A stretch of 38,485 nt of DNA from a phage, in the NCBI GenBank assembly GCA_016969615.1, contig GCA_016969615.1_4548.1. One strand, 5' to 3'. The translations under genes and the position numbers were made by a program. Position 1 is the first letter of the stretch, and the number at the start of each line of letters is the position of its first letter. Positions 27,797-35,673 of the stretch are shown here, one piece after another. A model generated the notes under the pieces. The model ran no database searches. It was not told the DNA's origin and saw nothing but the letters and a program-made list of their open reading frames with translations.

Positions 27797-30478
27797 TTAA
27801 GCGAATGCAAAGTCTGAAGACAAGATGTCTTCGATATTCAGTTTACCTTTCTTCGGAAGCTCTGGCAGCTTGTCGCGCTGGCTCTCATGAAGCTGGTATT
27901 CAAACTGCTCATAGAAGTCAAGCAGCACATCGTTGTCGCGGTAGGTCTCGACCATCGTCTCACGGACACCACGGAACAGATACTCAGCGTCAGCCGGGAT
28001 GGTCCCGAAGCTATCGTGAATCACTGCGAATGACATCACGCCATACTTGCGGTGAGTGTGGACTACAGTCTTGCGGAGGTGGCAGCCATCTTGTGAGTGG
28101 ACGAAGTTCGGGCTAATTCCTGACTCCTGCTTGTGCTTGTCCAGATCTTTCTTCATGCCTTTGTTGACGGTAGGCTGAAGGTTAAATGATCCTAAGAACA
28201 TCAGGTTCAGACGCGTGGTATCCTTCTTGCGGTATTCCTGCCAGACCGGGAACCCATCAGGTGTGACCCAGTGTACCGGAAGGCAAGGCTTCAGGATTTC
28301 ACCAGTCTTCTTGTCTTTCACTTCAGCAGCAAGCAGCTTGGCAGCACCTTGAAGCCACTTCATCGCGTCAACCGCAGCGACTACAGTCACAGACACAGCT
28401 TCCCAAATCATCTTAGCCATGAAGCGGGACGCTTGGCTTGGTTCGGTGAACATAGCGCCAGACCCTGAGTCAATTGCTGGCATCACGATGTCCTCGTAAA
28501 CTTGGTCTGCAAAGCCGTACTCTTTCGACCCGTAGGCCAGAGTCATGACTGAGCGCTTAGTAACCTTGCGTGACATACCGTAAGTCAGCCACTGCCGGGC
28601 CAGCTCTCGTGTCCCCAGCTTGAGACGTTCGGTAATCTCACCAGTCTTCTTATCCTCATGAGTGACCATCTCGTTGTCCGTACCATTAACCAGCAGGACT
28701 TTAAGCTCTTCCTCAATGCGGTCAGATACGATGCGGTAGATGTCTTGGACCTTACCGGAAGGCGTCAGGTTTACTGCATGTCCACCGATGTGATCACGAA
28801 GCATCGCGCTAAAGTGCTGAATCCCAGAGCAGGACCCATCGAATGCTATCGGCAGCGAGCAGGAGTAAGACAATCCGTGATGCATTACGCCAGCATACTC
28901 GAAGCAGAACGCTAGGAAGCAGAACGGAGAGTCTAACTTTCCCCACCACTCAATGCTGTCCATCGGTGCCTTAGCGGCAGCCATGATGTTGTCGTGGTTG
29001 TCTTCCACCCACTTGATGCGCTCCTCGAAGGTTACTTTATCGACACCCGCGCAGTTTGCCCCGTGGACCTTCAGCCATTTGAAACCGTCGGCCCCAATAG
29101 GCTTACCGACCGCCAGAGTCAGAAGACCCTTTTGCATGTCGTTACCTTGAGGGTTGAACATCGGAACAGCGTATACACGACCTCGCCAGTCCATATTGTA
29201 CGGAAACCATATGGCCTTGAACTGAGAGAATTTGTTCGCTTGGTTGACTATAAAGCTCAGTGACAATCTTCGCGACCGCCGGGCCTTCTCTCGGCGGTAG
29301 ATGCCAGCAGCAGCCTTCTTCCATGCCTTGAGTTCCTCTTCAGTATCCCCCGCATAGTCTTCAGGCTTCAGCGGCTCCATCTGAGGGATGTCGTCAATAG
29401 GCGTGTTATTCAGCTTCTCGACCTTGTTCACCACGTCCAGCACCTTCTTGTTCACTTTCCAAGGCGTATTCTGGATGATATTCACAGCGTCATAGACTTC
29501 AGGCATGTACACATCTTCGTAGCGTGCCACCGCAGACTTAGACCCTAAGCGAATCAGTGGTAGTGGTCTGCGACCTTTGGCCCAGTACCCACCGCCTACG
29601 ACACCAGTCCACGGCTTAGGTGGAACGACGCAAGGCTGGTAGACTGGAGCGATACCCGCAAGGCTGAATCCTCGTTGTGCCATCTTCTTGACCCAGAAGT
29701 CTGACAGGTGGACCATCTCAACGTCAGCCGCTACATTACCAGCACCGTAACGCTTAAGCTCAACCAGTTGTGTAGACTGGATGACAATCTCAAGCATCTT
29801 GATGCCAACGTGTACCGCTTCGGTCGGACTCCAAGTACCCCACGCATCTTCCAGCTGACCCTGCTCCAGCATGGAGGTCTCAACCGCTTGCATGTAGGCT
29901 TTCTTATAGGATGCCCCGGCTCGCTTGTTCAGGTTCTCAGCTATCGCCTTCTTGAAGTGCGCCTGCTCCTTGTCTCGGATTCGACCGAAGCGGATTTCAT
30001 CTTCAAGTGTGCGACCTATCGCGGAGGCCATCGGTGTAATCGGTATACCTTCAGGCTTGACCAGCTTGGAGAGGATGACCTTCAGTATGATAACCGCAGC
30101 AGACTCACAGGAGATGTGCAAAGAGCGGTCCTTGACGGCCTTCTCTTCAGTGCTCAACATGGTGAACGCTACGCTCGGACGTGAGGTTGACAGCTTCCCG
30201 TCTTGACCTTCATGCCACTCCCTGACGGCTTGCGCAATCTTAGGAACCAGAGTCTGCATCAAAGGCTTGGCTACCTGATTGTCTGCCAGTTCCCCGCGCT
30301 CAGTCTGTCGCTCAAGGTTCTTGATGAAACGTCGCTCGCCTTCAGTGTATGCCTCATGCTCAAGCTGAAGCTGTTTGACTGCAAGGTCTTGCCCGTAGTG
30401 GTCAGCCAGCAGGTTAAACGGCTCAATGGCGTTCGACACATCGGAGAAGTCGTGTTTGTCAATAGGGATGACTCTCAT
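27797..30478 (-). CDS. gp1: DNA-directed RNA polymerase (single-subunit, T7 type)
   Basis: 893 aa; near-continuous alignment with T7 RNAP (PFCFLAFCFEYAGV.HHGLSY.CSLP.AFDGSCSGIQHFSAMLRD, HDSFGT, FAFA C-terminus); specificity-loop region differs from T7. Confidence 0.97.
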   Translation of the reverse strand: MRVIPIDKHDFSDVSNAIEPFNLLADHYGQDLAVKQLQLEHEAYTEGERRFIKNLERQTERGELADNQVAKPLMQTLVPKIAQAVREWHEGQDGKLSTSRPSVAFTMLSTEEKAVKDRSLHISCESAAVIILKVILSKLVKPEGIPITPMASAIGRTLEDEIRFGRIRDKEQAHFKKAIAENLNKRAGASYKKAYMQAVETSMLEQGQLEDAWGTWSPTEAVHVGIKMLEIVIQSTQLVELKRYGAGNVAADVEMVHLSDFWVKKMAQRGFSLAGIAPVYQPCVVPPKPWTGVVGGGYWAKGRRPLPLIRLGSKSAVARYEDVYMPEVYDAVNIIQNTPWKVNKKVLDVVNKVEKLNNTPIDDIPQMEPLKPEDYAGDTEEELKAWKKAAAGIYRREKARRSRRLSLSFIVNQANKFSQFKAIWFPYNMDWRGRVYAVPMFNPQGNDMQKGLLTLAVGKPIGADGFKWLKVHGANCAGVDKVTFEERIKWVEDNHDNIMAAAKAPMDSIEWWGKLDSPFCFLAFCFEYAGVMHHGLSYSCSLPIAFDGSCSGIQHFSAMLRDHIGGHAVNLTPSGKVQDIYRIVSDRIEEELKVLLVNGTDNEMVTHEDKKTGEITERLKLGTRELARQWLTYGMSRKVTKRSVMTLAYGSKEYGFADQVYEDIVMPAIDSGSGAMFTEPSQASRFMAKMIWEAVSVTVVAAVDAMKWLQGAAKLLAAEVKDKKTGEILKPCLPVHWVTPDGFPVWQEYRKKDTTRLNLMFLGSFNLQPTVNKGMKKDLDKHKQESGISPNFVHSQDGCHLRKTVVHTHRKYGVMSFAVIHDSFGTIPADAEYLFRGVRETMVETYRDNDVLLDFYEQFEYQLHESQRDKLPELPKKGKLNIEDILSSDFAFA

Positions 30479-30497
30479 ACTTAAAGTCCTTGTTATT

Positions 30498-30538
30498 AGT
30501 CTTTCACTTAAAGTCTCTTTGGTCTTTCACTTGGAGTC
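30498..30538 (-). repeat. Two 18-bp direct repeats in the gene 1 leader
   Basis: plus agtctttcacttaaagtc (30498..30515) and ggtctttcacttggagtc (30521..30538), 15/18 identical, between promoter and gene 1 RBS. Confidence 0.6.
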
Positions 30539-30551
30539 TTAGACCTTGAGT

Positions 30552-30569
30552 CCTATAGTGATAGTTAAG
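30552..30569 (-). promoter_or_regulatory. Phage RNA polymerase promoter core immediately upstream of gene 1
   Basis: minus CTTAACTATCACTATAGGACTCAAGG; about 70 nt upstream of the RNAP start codon. Confidence 0.8.
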
Positions 30570-30575
30570 TCAGAA

Positions 30576-30836
30576 TCACTTGCATATCAGTGGGTTAGCG
30601 TGAAGATGACTGAAGTCACCATGAGTCGTATGCTTGATGGTTGACCGTTGGTCTATCGCCTTCCAGCCTGAGACCAGAAGTTTACCATCGTCAGTGATTG
30701 GTCGTCCACCATACGCCAGACACATCAGTTCGGACTTATAGCCCTCAGCCCGGAGTCTTGCTTGCAGTACACGGTCGCGCTCCTGCTGTTGACGTGCGGA
30801 GTGTGAAGAGTGGCGGTGAGTGTATGTAGATTTCAT
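30576..30836 (-). CDS. Hypothetical 86-aa early protein
   Basis: ATG overlaps (ATGA) the stop of the restored HNH reading frame; no domain recognised. Confidence 0.55.
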   Translation of the reverse strand: MKSTYTHRHSSHSARQQQERDRVLQARLRAEGYKSELMCLAYGGRPITDDGKLLVSGWKAIDQRSTIKHTTHGDFSHLHANPLICK

Positions 30837-31248
30837 TGTTGGTGCTCCTGTAAGTATTTGATTGCTCTCGCCAGCAGTTCCTGCGAGTCGTTAAATTTTC
30901 CCAGAGTGGTGTTACATGAAAAGCAGAGAAGACCTCGCACCTTCCCCCCGTGGAGTGGCAGTGGTCTACTGCGAGTCGTTGCCCTCTAGTCTCTTCCCCT
31001 GCACATATCGCACACACTCCACCCTGCCTCTCAAGCATCGCATCGTATTCTTCCACAGTAATCCCGTACAGTCTTTTAAGGAAGGATTTGCGCTGCACAT
31101 TCTTGAAGCTCTCTTCATTGCTGCGCTTTTTTCGTGCCAAATACTTGCAGGCTTTGCATTGATTTTCGTAACCATCCTTATGCCCCAGATGTTTATAAAA
31201 ATCAGTCAACGGCTTTAATGTGTGACACTTCTTGCATATCTTTTCCAT
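30833..31248 (-). pseudogene. Endonuclease VII-type HNH endonuclease, reading frame broken at a C6/G6 homopolymer
   Basis: 0-frame gives ...GGVCAICAGEETRGQRLAVDHCHSTGG then off-motif residues; the -1 frame after the six-C run at 30944..30949 reads KVRGLLCFSCNTTLGKF... (canonical Endo VII motif) and ends TGA overlapping the next ATG. Confidence 0.75.
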
Positions 31249-31445
31249 CACAGCTTACTTCCCAAAGTTGCTATATCCCAGACGTTCGCGAGGTTGCGCA
31301 TGAATCGTCCGTTAGGTTGACGTACAGTCCAGCGGCCCGGACGTACATAGTTGAATTTGTAGACTTTACGCGCCTTGTTAATGTCTCTCATCAGCACGTA
31401 GGCGATAAGTCCATAGCCTATGACTATCAATAGTGTTATACTCAT
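31248..31445 (-). CDS. Small membrane protein (65 aa)
   Basis: N-terminal hydrophobic helix MSITLLIVIGYGLIAYVLM; stop overlaps the HNH start; ATG overlaps the stop of an upstream 29-aa ORF. Confidence 0.5.
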   Translation of the reverse strand: MSITLLIVIGYGLIAYVLMRDINKARKVYKFNYVRPGRWTVRQPNGRFMRNLANVWDIATLGSKL

Positions 31446-31531
31446 AGTGATTTCCGTTTAATGCAATCGTATATCCCATAGCCTATCAGCCAGATAACTG
31501 GCGCTAGGCATACCCAGTATCCCACACTCAT
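31442..31531 (-). CDS. Candidate 29-aa membrane micro-protein
   Basis: AGGAG then 6 nt then ATG; MSVGYWVCLAPVIWLIGYGIYDCIKRKSL; below ORF-track cutoff. Confidence 0.35.
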   Translation of the reverse strand: MSVGYWVCLAPVIWLIGYGIYDCIKRKSL

Positions 31532-31768: not shown

Positions 31769-32107
31769 TCAGCACTCGCAGTCCTCCTCTTCAGCCTCGA
31801 ACCATACCACATCACGGCTATTGGACACATCGTTATACAGTGCCTCATAGATGCGAGCTTGTAGTATACGCGTTACGTCCTTGGTATCAGGCATCATACC
31901 AGAGTCTTCAAACTCGTGGTCAATACCATCAGCAGCCATCACCGTGAAAATCTCGTGGTAATAGTGCGGAACCATATTGTCTACGACTTCATGCAGCGCA
32001 TCGCTGTAGTCATCACCTTCAGCTATTTCGTCGTACTGAATGCGCTCGTTAAATGCTTTAACAGTTGCAGCCAGCAGGTAATAGTATGCGTTAGCGTTAC
32101 GTTCCAT
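31769..32107 (-). CDS. ocr: Ocr-like anti-restriction protein (DNA mimic)
   Basis: 112 aa, acidic; [46 protein letters not shown] is near-identical to the T7 gp0.3 core; acidic C-terminus. Confidence 0.9.
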
Positions 32108-33239: not shown

Positions 33240-33450
33240 TGTGGTCTCAAACTTTTGGTCCAAAACTCATCGTCCCTCCTTAGGAGTCCCTGCTACTGTA
33301 GGTAATACCGTAGGTCAGAGACCTTGGGATAGACCATGGACTGCTATAGTGTTACTTTAGGTCCTTGACTACAGTAGCTAAGGTCAGTAGAGTGAGTCTT
33401 TATCCACGTACTGACCTTAGGTCTTCCGCTCATGAATCATTACCATGATT
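33240..33450 (-). repeat. Short degenerate repeats on the genome-right side of the junction
   Basis: minus GACCTAAGG, GACCTTAG, GGACCTAAAG, GACCTACGG, CTCCTAAGG units; contains a degenerate promoter-like sequence at 33339..33360. Confidence 0.45.
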
Positions 33451-33612: not shown

Positions 33613-33796
33613 ATGCTACATACCTCCTGTATCTATGGTCGGTGACTATCTGTATTGGAGGGATTATGATTAATATCACCCTCCTTCCATCGGTGCAAGC
33701 CTTAGGTAAGAACTCGGAGTCTGCCTCCTAAGGTCTTGCATAAAGTCTGCATATGTATATTCACTACAGTAATACTATAAGTAACCGGGGGTCTTC

Positions 33797-33814
33797 CCTA
33801 TAGTGATAGTTAAG
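33797..33814 (-). promoter_or_regulatory. Phage RNA polymerase promoter core after the terminase gene (phiOR-like)
   Basis: minus CTTAACTATCACTATAGGGAAG; reads across the genome-end junction. Confidence 0.8.
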
Positions 33815-33909: not shown

Positions 33910-35673
33910 CTAGTGGAACGTAACGTATGACCCTAGTCCCAGCTCGTCGTCCGTATCGTGAGTTACCCGGACCCCATTGTCCCAGAACTCAGTGTGGATG
34001 GACTCGAAGCCTTTCCGTGGGTTCTCCATCTGTTCCTCCAGCCACTCCTCAGTGACTTCACGTTCGCCCTTGTTGGCATCCTTAGCCATAGACTCAACGA
34101 AGAACTGTACACCGATAGCCAGAGCATCAAGTCGGTCATCGTGTGCCAAGGCTCCACGTTCACGAGAGATACGTGTCATCTGGTAGAAGAGAGAGTAGAT
34201 AGGGTTACGAACACCATCCTTATCAGAGGCCGACTGGTAGTCTTGGACGATAGCAGCAGCGTTAACGATAAGTCGGTGAGACCCCATGATAGGCTCCAGA
34301 ACGTCACAGATTCGGAGTTCTTTCTGCCCCTTACTCTTCACTTCAGTTACAGCAGCAGGATGGATACGACCCGCTACAGGCTTGAATAACTCAAGGTACA
34401 TACCATCACCGAAGTTACCCTCAATGACGTATTCGTTGACCTTCCACTTACGACCAATCTTAGCCAGAGCTTCCAGCGTAGAGTCTTCATAACCACCACG
34501 CATACCACCAACTTCCATAGCGAAGATGTAGCCGTTGAGCTGGTACAGTACCGCATATCCAGTTTCATCCTTACCACGACCACTAGGGTCAATGACCAGA
34601 ATCTTCTGGGTGTATGAACTGAAGGCAGAACCTACAGTCTGATACGTGTGGTATGAGTCACCCATGAGTCCAACGTTAGGAACGTCCTCACGCTTGTTCT
34701 GAGGGTTAGGCAACCATTGGTAGACCATTGGGCTGGACGATGGGTCCAAGTCAGCTACGATAAGGTCACGGAGCTTCAGAGGGTACTTCTCAGCATCACT
34801 TAGGTTCGGGTTGAGCATGAACTGTAGAGCGAAGCCAGCTTTACCGTAGGACAACTCACGTTCCTTCAGGTCAGTATCGTCAAATCGAACTTCATCGGTC
34901 GGACGCCAGTAGAAGGCCTCAGGGTCCTCTTCAAGCTCTGCCTGAAGCATAGGAGCCAGACGGTCTCCGTAAGACTGCCAGTCCTTCCTGTCGCGTGGAT
35001 AACGAGCGGGCCAGATAGTAGTGGTGTACCCACGGCCTTCCAGCTCACGATACAAGGTCATCTCGTTCTGAGGAGTACCCAGATAGATGATTGTACCTCC
35101 CGGCTTCAGGATAGCGTCGAACTCCTTCACAAGCTCTGACAGACGGTCTCGTGCGGCCTGAGTCGCTGAGTTGTTTGGAACCTCCACGTCGTCGGCAATC
35201 AGGATGTCAGCACGACTACCAGTCAACTGACCAGTGATACCAACGGACTTAACCGAAGGTGAGTGGTCTGGCTTGGCTGGTCCAACATCGAAGCTGATAA
35301 CCGCATCTCGCTGTCCCTGCTTAGGTTTGAGTTCCTGAAGCTGAGGCATGAGGTCGATGATTCGCTTGATGAAGATGGAGTTAGCATCGGCTCGTTCCTT
35401 TGAGGCCGACACAATCATGAACTTCAAGTCTGGGTTGTTCCATAGCTTCCAGACAACGAAGGCGCACGTAATGAAGGACTTCCCGATACCACGGAACGCC
35501 TGTAGGATGAAGCGCCTGTTGTCCCCAGCCGATAGTTTCTTCGCCATATCAATCTGACAGCGAGTCGGGACTGGGAGTGACAGAGCTTTCCACAGGACGA
35601 ACAGGAAGAACACGAAGTCTGACTTCATACGTGCAGTCATTAGCGCCTGACGCGCCACTAAGTCTTTACTCAA
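33910..35673 (-). CDS. gp19: Terminase large subunit (DNA maturase B)
   Basis: 587 aa (T7 gp19 586); near-continuous identity ([73 protein letters not shown]); start read as TTG at 35673, ATG alternative 33 nt downstream. Confidence 0.95.

Follow-up and report, generated by a model that had tools for sequence, protein, structure and literature searches.

The class I genes of bacteriophage T7 (0.3, which encodes Ocr, 0.4, 0.6, 0.7 and 1.2) are mostly non-essential, and their products for the most part bind or modify host proteins. Gene 0.7, which closes the class I series ahead of gene 1, encodes a protein kinase associated with the shut-off of host transcription. In the T7 relatives K1F and EcoDS1, a gene for a 64–65-aa transmembrane (TM) protein is followed by gp0.38 and then by the gene 1 promoter. 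The gp0.38 family is catalogued as PHROG 7066, of unknown function, and its homologue in phage CR44b is gene 0.42. In Salmonella phage CHRF_20120 and Escherichia phage IMM-002, the order is gp0.37, endonuclease VII, gp0.38 and gene 1, with an ATGA overlap at the start of a gp0.38 of 83–86 aa. Deposited genomes (K1F, EcoDS1, CHRF_20120 and IMM-002) thus already contain this gene family in this position, as well as the arrangement interrupted by HNH. Here, we analyse a further copy of this locus, in which an 86-codon open reading frame (ORF) follows a frameshifted HNH gene, and we ask what the neighbouring genes imply for the role of its product.

The DNA analysed is a stretch of 38,485 nucleotides from a phage (GenBank assembly GCA_016969615.1, contig GCA_016969615.1_4548.1), which is referred to as the window. 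A megablast search with positions 30400-31500 returned 208 phage records at 87–95% identity, mostly from Escherichia, Salmonella and Kayfunavirus phages. The window represents almost all of the genome of a T7 relative resembling K1F and EcoDS1 (genus Kayfunavirus), in circularly permuted form and with the genes on the minus strand. The region around the ORF contains the following features:

27797..30478, minus strand: gene 1, encoding a T7-type RNA polymerase of 893 aa (ORF; annotated as RNA polymerase in the matched relatives)
30551..30575, minus strand: phage RNA polymerase promoter, directly 3' of the gp0.38 stop and upstream of gene 1 (AACTATCACTATAGGA)
30576..30836, minus strand: gp0.38 orthologue of 86 aa (ORF and PHROG 7066 profile match)
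30845..30849, minus strand: Shine–Dalgarno AGGAG for gp0.38, read from the sequence, inside the last HNH codons (..YLQEHQQ and stop)
30833..31248, minus strand: HNH/endonuclease VII gene, free-standing, 138 aa if restored (PF02945)
30944..30949, minus strand: frameshift site in the HNH gene, a run of six G (a C run on the plus strand), from sequence reading
31248..31445, minus strand: gp0.37 orthologue of 65 aa (PHROG 2385, E = 1.5e-31)
31769..32107: ocr homologue

The 1.3 kb from ocr to gene 1 is filled entirely by small ORFs. The last of these before the gene 1 promoter is the 86-codon ORF, as the first-pass annotation had stated: the promoter begins directly after its stop codon, and gene 1 comes next. 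At 30551-30566 the promoter sequence matches AACTATCACTATAGGA exactly and is one of 12 matches to the phage promoter consensus on the minus strand of the window, compared with 0.22 expected by chance. The annotations of EcoDS1, CR44b and CR8 include a 'phi' promoter at the corresponding place. Two further promoter-like sequences on the minus strand, at 33796-33811 and 33342-33357, have one and three mismatches to the consensus, respectively. Both lie upstream of the early region, just downstream of the terminase gene (33910-35673), and probably correspond to promoters of the T7 phiOR/phiOL type; they also show that the genome in the window is circularly permuted.

The ORF begins with an ATG at a compact junction, which on the minus strand reads ...TAC TTA CAG GAG CAC CAA CAATGAAATCT. 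The TGA (30835-30833) that ends a 35-codon C-terminal HNH frame overlaps the gp0.38 ATG (30836-30834) as ATGA, and the AGGAG (30849-30845) lies 8 nt 5' of that ATG. The overlap of start and stop codons on which the first-pass annotation had remarked is therefore present, although it applies to the restored HNH frame only. In pairwise comparisons of the window allele with 28 relatives, dN/dS ranged from 0.09 to 0.41 (0.09–0.14 for the closest relatives), which identifies the ORF as a real gene under purifying selection. A Shine–Dalgarno sequence was found in every locus layout compared, and tblastn located gp0.38 in 224 phage records, annotated as hypothetical every time. The conservation and the translation signal, whose absence the first-pass annotation had named as refuting evidence, are both present, and these results establish gp0.38 as a conserved, selected and translatable early gene.

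The HNH gene upstream is not intact as sequenced. To read DHCHSTGGKVRGLLC, seven G are needed at 30944-30949, and six are present. The PF02945 match consequently falls into two frames (profile positions 4-50 and 51-81), whereas after the addition of one G the 138-aa product matches positions 4-81 of 82 with E = 7.8e-28. This run is the sole G/C homopolymer of six or more in the window, and all of the large genes are intact. The missing G could be a sequencing undercall, or it could be a genuine slippage mutation that has left a pseudogene. As sequenced, the N-terminal HNH frame crosses the gp0.38 ATG and stops at 30745, 89 nt into gp0.38; if the frameshift is real, ribosomes on that frame would cross the gp0.38 start, and the expression of gp0.38 could be altered.

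The ORF is orthologous to K1F gp0.38, the early (class I) gene that immediately precedes the gene 1 promoter. Its product matches PHROG 7066 with E = 1.3e-44 (residues 3-86 against profile positions 6-95 of 95) and, like the products of K1F and EcoDS1 gp0.38 and CR44b gene 0.42, it belongs in a slot between gp0.37 and the promoter, with 78–93% amino-acid identity to these proteins. The K1F prototype has the same length of 86 aa and is 78% identical, while EcoDS1 gp0.38 has 132 aa and is 93% identical over the shared part. There are two differences from these systems. The first is that an HNH cassette parts gp0.38 from gp0.37 in the window, which distinguishes it from the K1F-type loci. The second is that the 46-aa N-terminal extension of EcoDS1-type proteins is missing from the window protein. 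The ORF had been described as an uncharacterised gene; this holds for function, but as a gene it already belonged to a named family. The literature searched on gp0.38, on K1F/EcoDS1 early genes and on Kayfunavirus anti-defence yielded no functional statement.

The family is sparsely represented. We found 139–191 relatives in a database of 5.8 billion proteins, and when 1.84 billion cluster representatives were searched with a profile, only 12 clusters were returned, all of phage type, so the family is a narrow one. A 1594-aa profile match with seven repeats matching the Q/R-rich helix was set aside as low-complexity noise. Members at 34–51% identity (P0123, P0125 and P0130, from T7-like metagenomic contigs) lie between a 64–65-aa gene, which their start overlaps, and gene 1. 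In Citrobacter phage CR8 (Caroctavirus) and Cronobacter phage Dev2, a 0.7-type kinase gene (242–244 aa) precedes the TM protein gene and gp0.38. The family belongs to Kayfunavirus and to some neighbouring T7-like genera. Scans of the window protein and 13 diverse family members against Pfam, NCBIfam and PADLOC gave no match, and a PDB sequence-profile search with gp0.38 gave none below E = 0.5. The homology and structure search proposed in the first-pass annotation has placed the protein in PHROG 7066; nothing with a known function was found to resemble it in fold or in sequence.

Family members fall into three length classes (83–88, about 108 and 128–139 aa), which have the C-terminal 80 or so residues in common and differ by an N-terminal extension. 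The 130-aa forms and several distant members have a common N-terminal module, W-x-Y-x-G-x-DSRGR-x-YW or IxIDxxGR, as seen in P0002, P0121, P0125, P0127 and CR8 gp0.38. The shared module suggests a longer ancestral protein, with the 86-aa form arising repeatedly by reduction. In CR8 gp0.38 (L036 2532-2888) there is also an exact tandem duplication of 17 aa, with KSEDGKLLLAGLKAGIQ occurring twice within the predicted third helix.

T7 carries its 0.7 kinase near this position, and the first-pass annotation had reported none here. We reached the same result with tblastn of T7 gp0.7 against the whole window (no kinase; best E = 3.1). As the last class I gene before gene 1 and an early accessory gene, gp0.38 resembles T7 0.7; nevertheless, its product has no sequence relationship to gp0.7, comprises only 86 aa and is non-enzymatic by appearance. 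The hhalign comparison of the gp0.38 family gave a probability of 0.2% against T7 gp0.7 and also of 0.2% against T7 gp0.6A, and tblastn of gp0.38 and gp0.37 against the T7 early region gave no significant match. Two candidate origins were rejected on this basis, namely a detached C-terminal shut-off domain of gp0.7 (by hhalign) and a relative of T7 gp0.6 (by hhalign together with the negative tblastn). Nor does gp0.38 stand in for the 0.7 kinase, since CR8 and Dev2 carry both.

In order to place the HNH gene, the window was compared with 28 related loci, among which six layouts were distinguished:

gp0.37, then the 130-aa form of gp0.38: 5 loci
gp0.37, then the 108-aa form: 12 loci
gp0.37, then the 86-/83-aa form directly: 4 loci, and K1F likewise
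gp0.37, HNH, then the 86-/83-aa form: the window and 4 loci
gp0.37, HNH, then the 108-aa form: 1 locus
CR44b, without gp0.37 and HNH: about 30 nt of the HNH 3' end (..AIKYLQENQQ and stop) before the 86-aa gene

In the window, the HNH cassette comprises 412 nt (31248 to 30837) and is inserted precisely where the gp0.37 stop meets the gp0.38 start. With 95.5% DNA identity, the allele nearest to the window gp0.38 is that of phage ECO104 4-5-2, which is HNH-free and has the arrangement gp0.37-TAATG-gp0.38; the HNH-free junction of this type reads ...GGGAGCAAACTGTAATGAAAAC... Against HNH-free relatives, homology breaks off at 31246 and 30818. The phage collection contained nothing closely related in DNA to the window HNH allele. 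The HNH proteins at this junction are only 39–63% identical to one another, whereas the gp0.38 cores beside them keep 88–95% DNA identity to their HNH-free neighbours. From the divergent HNH alleles next to similar gp0.38 alleles, it follows that the two genes have separate histories and that HNH has been gained and lost repeatedly. The gene order, the ATGA overlap and the length of gp0.38 in CHRF_20120 and IMM-002 are those of the window, but the window HNH protein is only 46–55% identical to theirs and its gene is frameshifted.

Traces of loss are found as well. The HNH remnant in CR44b (L028 1501-1534) is, judged by its sequence, a deletion footprint, and in phages KE18 (PP856720.1) and KE14 (PP856716.1) only the C-terminal third of HNH is left; these remnants point to decay of the cassette by deletion. 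HNH is not the only gene to have entered this site. Phage PRF-SP1 has a 185-aa ORF of no family at the gp0.37/gp0.38 junction (L038 498-1055), phage vB_Eco_1RS has a 73-aa phrog_32657 ORF there (L039 498-719), and both of these cassettes begin at the gp0.37 stop overlap. The overlap of the gp0.37 stop with the gp0.38 start (31246-31250 in the window) is a recurrent insertion hotspot, and the HNH gene is a selfish mobile cassette of endonuclease VII type. Free-standing homing endonuclease genes of T-odd and T-even phages, such as HNH genes of the T7 gp3.8/gp5.3 type and the seg/mob genes of T4, behave in the same way: like them, the window HNH is scattered among close relatives, always at a fixed site, is inserted precisely between two genes that it leaves intact, and has decayed to remnants in some genomes. 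It differs in that this copy may be inactive owing to the frameshift, and cleavage of the junction is putative.

The manner in which the cassettes end is relevant to the translation of gp0.38. In all of the HNH-free loci, the gp0.38 start is preceded by GGGAGcaaactgTAATG, which is a Shine–Dalgarno sequence within the 3' end of gp0.37. At the HNH-bearing loci, the ending CAGGAG...caATGA is shared by four of the five further HNH cassettes found at the site and by the CR44b footprint; the other cassette-end sequences are AAGGAAG (L002) and ACAGGGG (L017). Since most of the cassettes end in this way, HNH cassettes recreate both a ribosome-binding site and an overlap for gp0.38. Over the last 37 residues of HNH (30833-30943, compared with L002 2037-2150), conservation between alleles is 73%, against 46% for the remainder. 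This region, which also encodes the gp0.38 Shine–Dalgarno sequence and overlap, may be under dual constraint.

The window protein has a mass of 9.8 kDa, a pI of 9.75 and seven His residues. An AlphaFold prediction from a shallow alignment, in which all sequences were at least 73% identical, reached a pLDDT of 51, and distant members were added for a second prediction. With the diverse alignment, the pLDDT rose to 78.4 and the pTM was 0.61, with residues 11-60 at 88–95. The predicted helices (11-30, 34-41 and 49-70) form a helical hairpin, while the tail formed by residues 71-86 (THGDFSHLHANPLICK) is of low confidence. Nevertheless, the tail is the most conserved segment of the protein, with a mean column entropy of 0.65 bits compared with 1.4 for helix 1. 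In an alignment of 41 sequences at 35–94% identity, Thr70, Gly73, Phe75, His77 and Leu78 are invariant and Asp74 is nearly so, giving a C-terminal motif T-(T/S)-x-G-D-F-x-H-L that reads TTHGDFSHL in the window. In Dev2-type proteins, essentially the tail alone is retained, the remaining protein having been swapped. The first-pass annotation had recognized no motif in this protein, and the domain databases gave none; the family has this near-invariant C-terminal motif.

The usual upstream neighbour of gp0.38 is gp0.37, which corresponds to the EcoDS1 gene named 'gp0.6' and to CR8 0.71; no detectable similarity to T7 gp0.6A lies behind the EcoDS1 name. Hydropathy analysis places a TM helix at the N-terminus of the gp0.37 protein, which has a pI of 11.0, and its basic C-terminal 45 aa are almost invariant across genera (K1F, CR8 and Dev2). 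The two genes usually meet where stop and start codons overlap (TAATG or TGATG), with GGGAG as the Shine–Dalgarno sequence. Homologues of gp0.37 occur in about 600 phage records, at least 202 of which have gp0.38 adjacent.

The first-pass annotation had raised the possibility that the protein is a partner of the nuclease; such a partner could be, for instance, a specificity, immunity or regulatory subunit of HNH that is co-translated through the ATGA. Such a partnership would account for the overlap and for the Shine–Dalgarno sequence within the HNH 3' end, and the same arrangement is seen in other HNH-bearing Kayfunaviruses; however, tblastn with a concatenated HNH and gp0.38 query found an endonuclease VII gene adjoining gp0.38 in only 11 of about 224 carriers. 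The 86-aa form, the closest allele included, occurs without HNH, and the nearest gp0.38 alleles of HNH-bearing loci are in HNH-free phages. Moreover, the HNH alleles are of polyphyletic origin and have diverged strongly in comparison with gp0.38, the junction also accepts unrelated cassettes, and HNH-free phages couple gp0.38 to gp0.37 instead. The co-occurrence pattern thus contradicts a partnership, which we regard as highly improbable. It is hardly more credible that the ORF is the decaying remnant of a gene of 108–132 aa whose 5' part was lost to the HNH insertion. The cassette does stand in place of the first 46–49 codons of the EcoDS1/Bas105 genes (130–132 aa), and the W-x-Y-x-G-x-DSRGR-x-YW module is common to these forms and to distant members, as a loss would predict, but the K1F prototype is itself 86 aa long without HNH, as is the ECO104 4-5-2 gene, and HNH-free forms of 86 or 83 aa are common. 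The start codon and the Shine–Dalgarno sequence are conserved, the low dN/dS against the closest relatives is unlike that of a remnant, and the 86-aa form lacks nothing of the predicted core (residues 11-70) or of the conserved tail.

Two other proposals concern the protein itself. By loose analogy with the arginine-rich-motif phage regulators lambda N and HK022 Nun, gp0.38 might bind nucleic acid or RNA polymerase and regulate the switch from early to middle transcription. The protein is basic with a His-rich tail, helix 11-30 carries Arg15, Arg20, Arg22, Arg27 and Arg29, of which Arg20 and Arg27 are nearly invariant, and the gene always lies immediately upstream of the gene 1 phage promoter. 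This last point loses force in T7-like genomes, where the position of a gene mirrors its order of entry and not its target of action. Furthermore, the first helix is the more variable part of the protein and exists in two divergent allele types, and the searches revealed no DNA- or RNA-binding family to which gp0.38 is similar in sequence or fold; we consider such a regulator to be quite unlikely. A somewhat better case, although still an unlikely one, can be made for gp0.38 as half of an obligate two-protein unit with gp0.37, which would act, for example, in envelope-associated exclusion or anti-defence, gp0.38 being inactive on its own. The stop/start overlap in all HNH-free loci, the adjacency of the genes in at least 202 of about 224 carriers across genera and the almost invariant C-terminal domain of gp0.37 all agree with a joint unit. 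On the other hand, the viable isolate CR44b has lost gp0.37 and keeps gp0.38 intact, about 400 records, most of them from Klebsiella phages and including hundreds that are KP32-like, carry a gp0.37 homologue but no gp0.38, and cassettes are tolerated between the two genes.

The explanation that we favour, and consider very probable in its main part, is that the ORF is the K1F gp0.38 orthologue and that HNH is an inserted selfish cassette; that the gene product is an early host-interaction protein is a further element, to which we give somewhat less than even odds. The HNH cassette has inserted exactly into the stop-start overlap of gp0.37 and gp0.38 and captured the start that had been coupled to gp0.37, with the 3' end of the cassette supplying a new AGGAG and the ATGA overlap. 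As these signals are supplied by the cassette, gp0.38 remains translatable, and since the cassette rebuilds the start signals, the coupling to HNH is a by-product of the landing site with no sign of joint function. Of the two possibilities raised in the first-pass annotation, the independent early function is the one that agrees with the data: the slot upstream of gene 1 is kept in distant T7-like phages, and the gene is under purifying selection.

As to what this early function may be, the general biology of T7 class I genes and the anatomy of a scaffold with an invariant tail lead us, tentatively, to suggest that gp0.38 is a small non-enzymatic host-interaction protein, active in host takeover or anti-defence, that binds a host or defence target through the tail. 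The protein would be made from the early transcript of the host polymerase, ahead of takeover by the phage RNA polymerase. The helical hairpin (residues 11-70) would form a scaffold, and docking to a target protein would fall to the unstructured, near-invariant tail (T-T-x-G-D-F-S-H-L...), an idea drawn solely from the contrast between its high conservation and its low pLDDT. The protein may also work jointly with the membrane-anchored gp0.37. More speculatively, gp0.38 could represent a new class of early effector in the T7 group, in which a minimal hairpin presents the invariant short linear motif TTxGDFSHLHANPLICK to a specific host or defence protein and is possibly recruited to the membrane by gp0.37; we put this forward with considerable doubt.

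The finding is in itself ordinary, being another copy of a catalogued hypothetical protein beside a mobile HNH gene. The overlap of gp0.37 and gp0.38 is of wider use as an example of how mobile genes enter coupled operons without polar damage. In addition, gp0.38 and gp0.37 are strongly conserved early genes of K1F-like phages that are used therapeutically, and they are reasonable candidates for screens of host-takeover and anti-defence functions.
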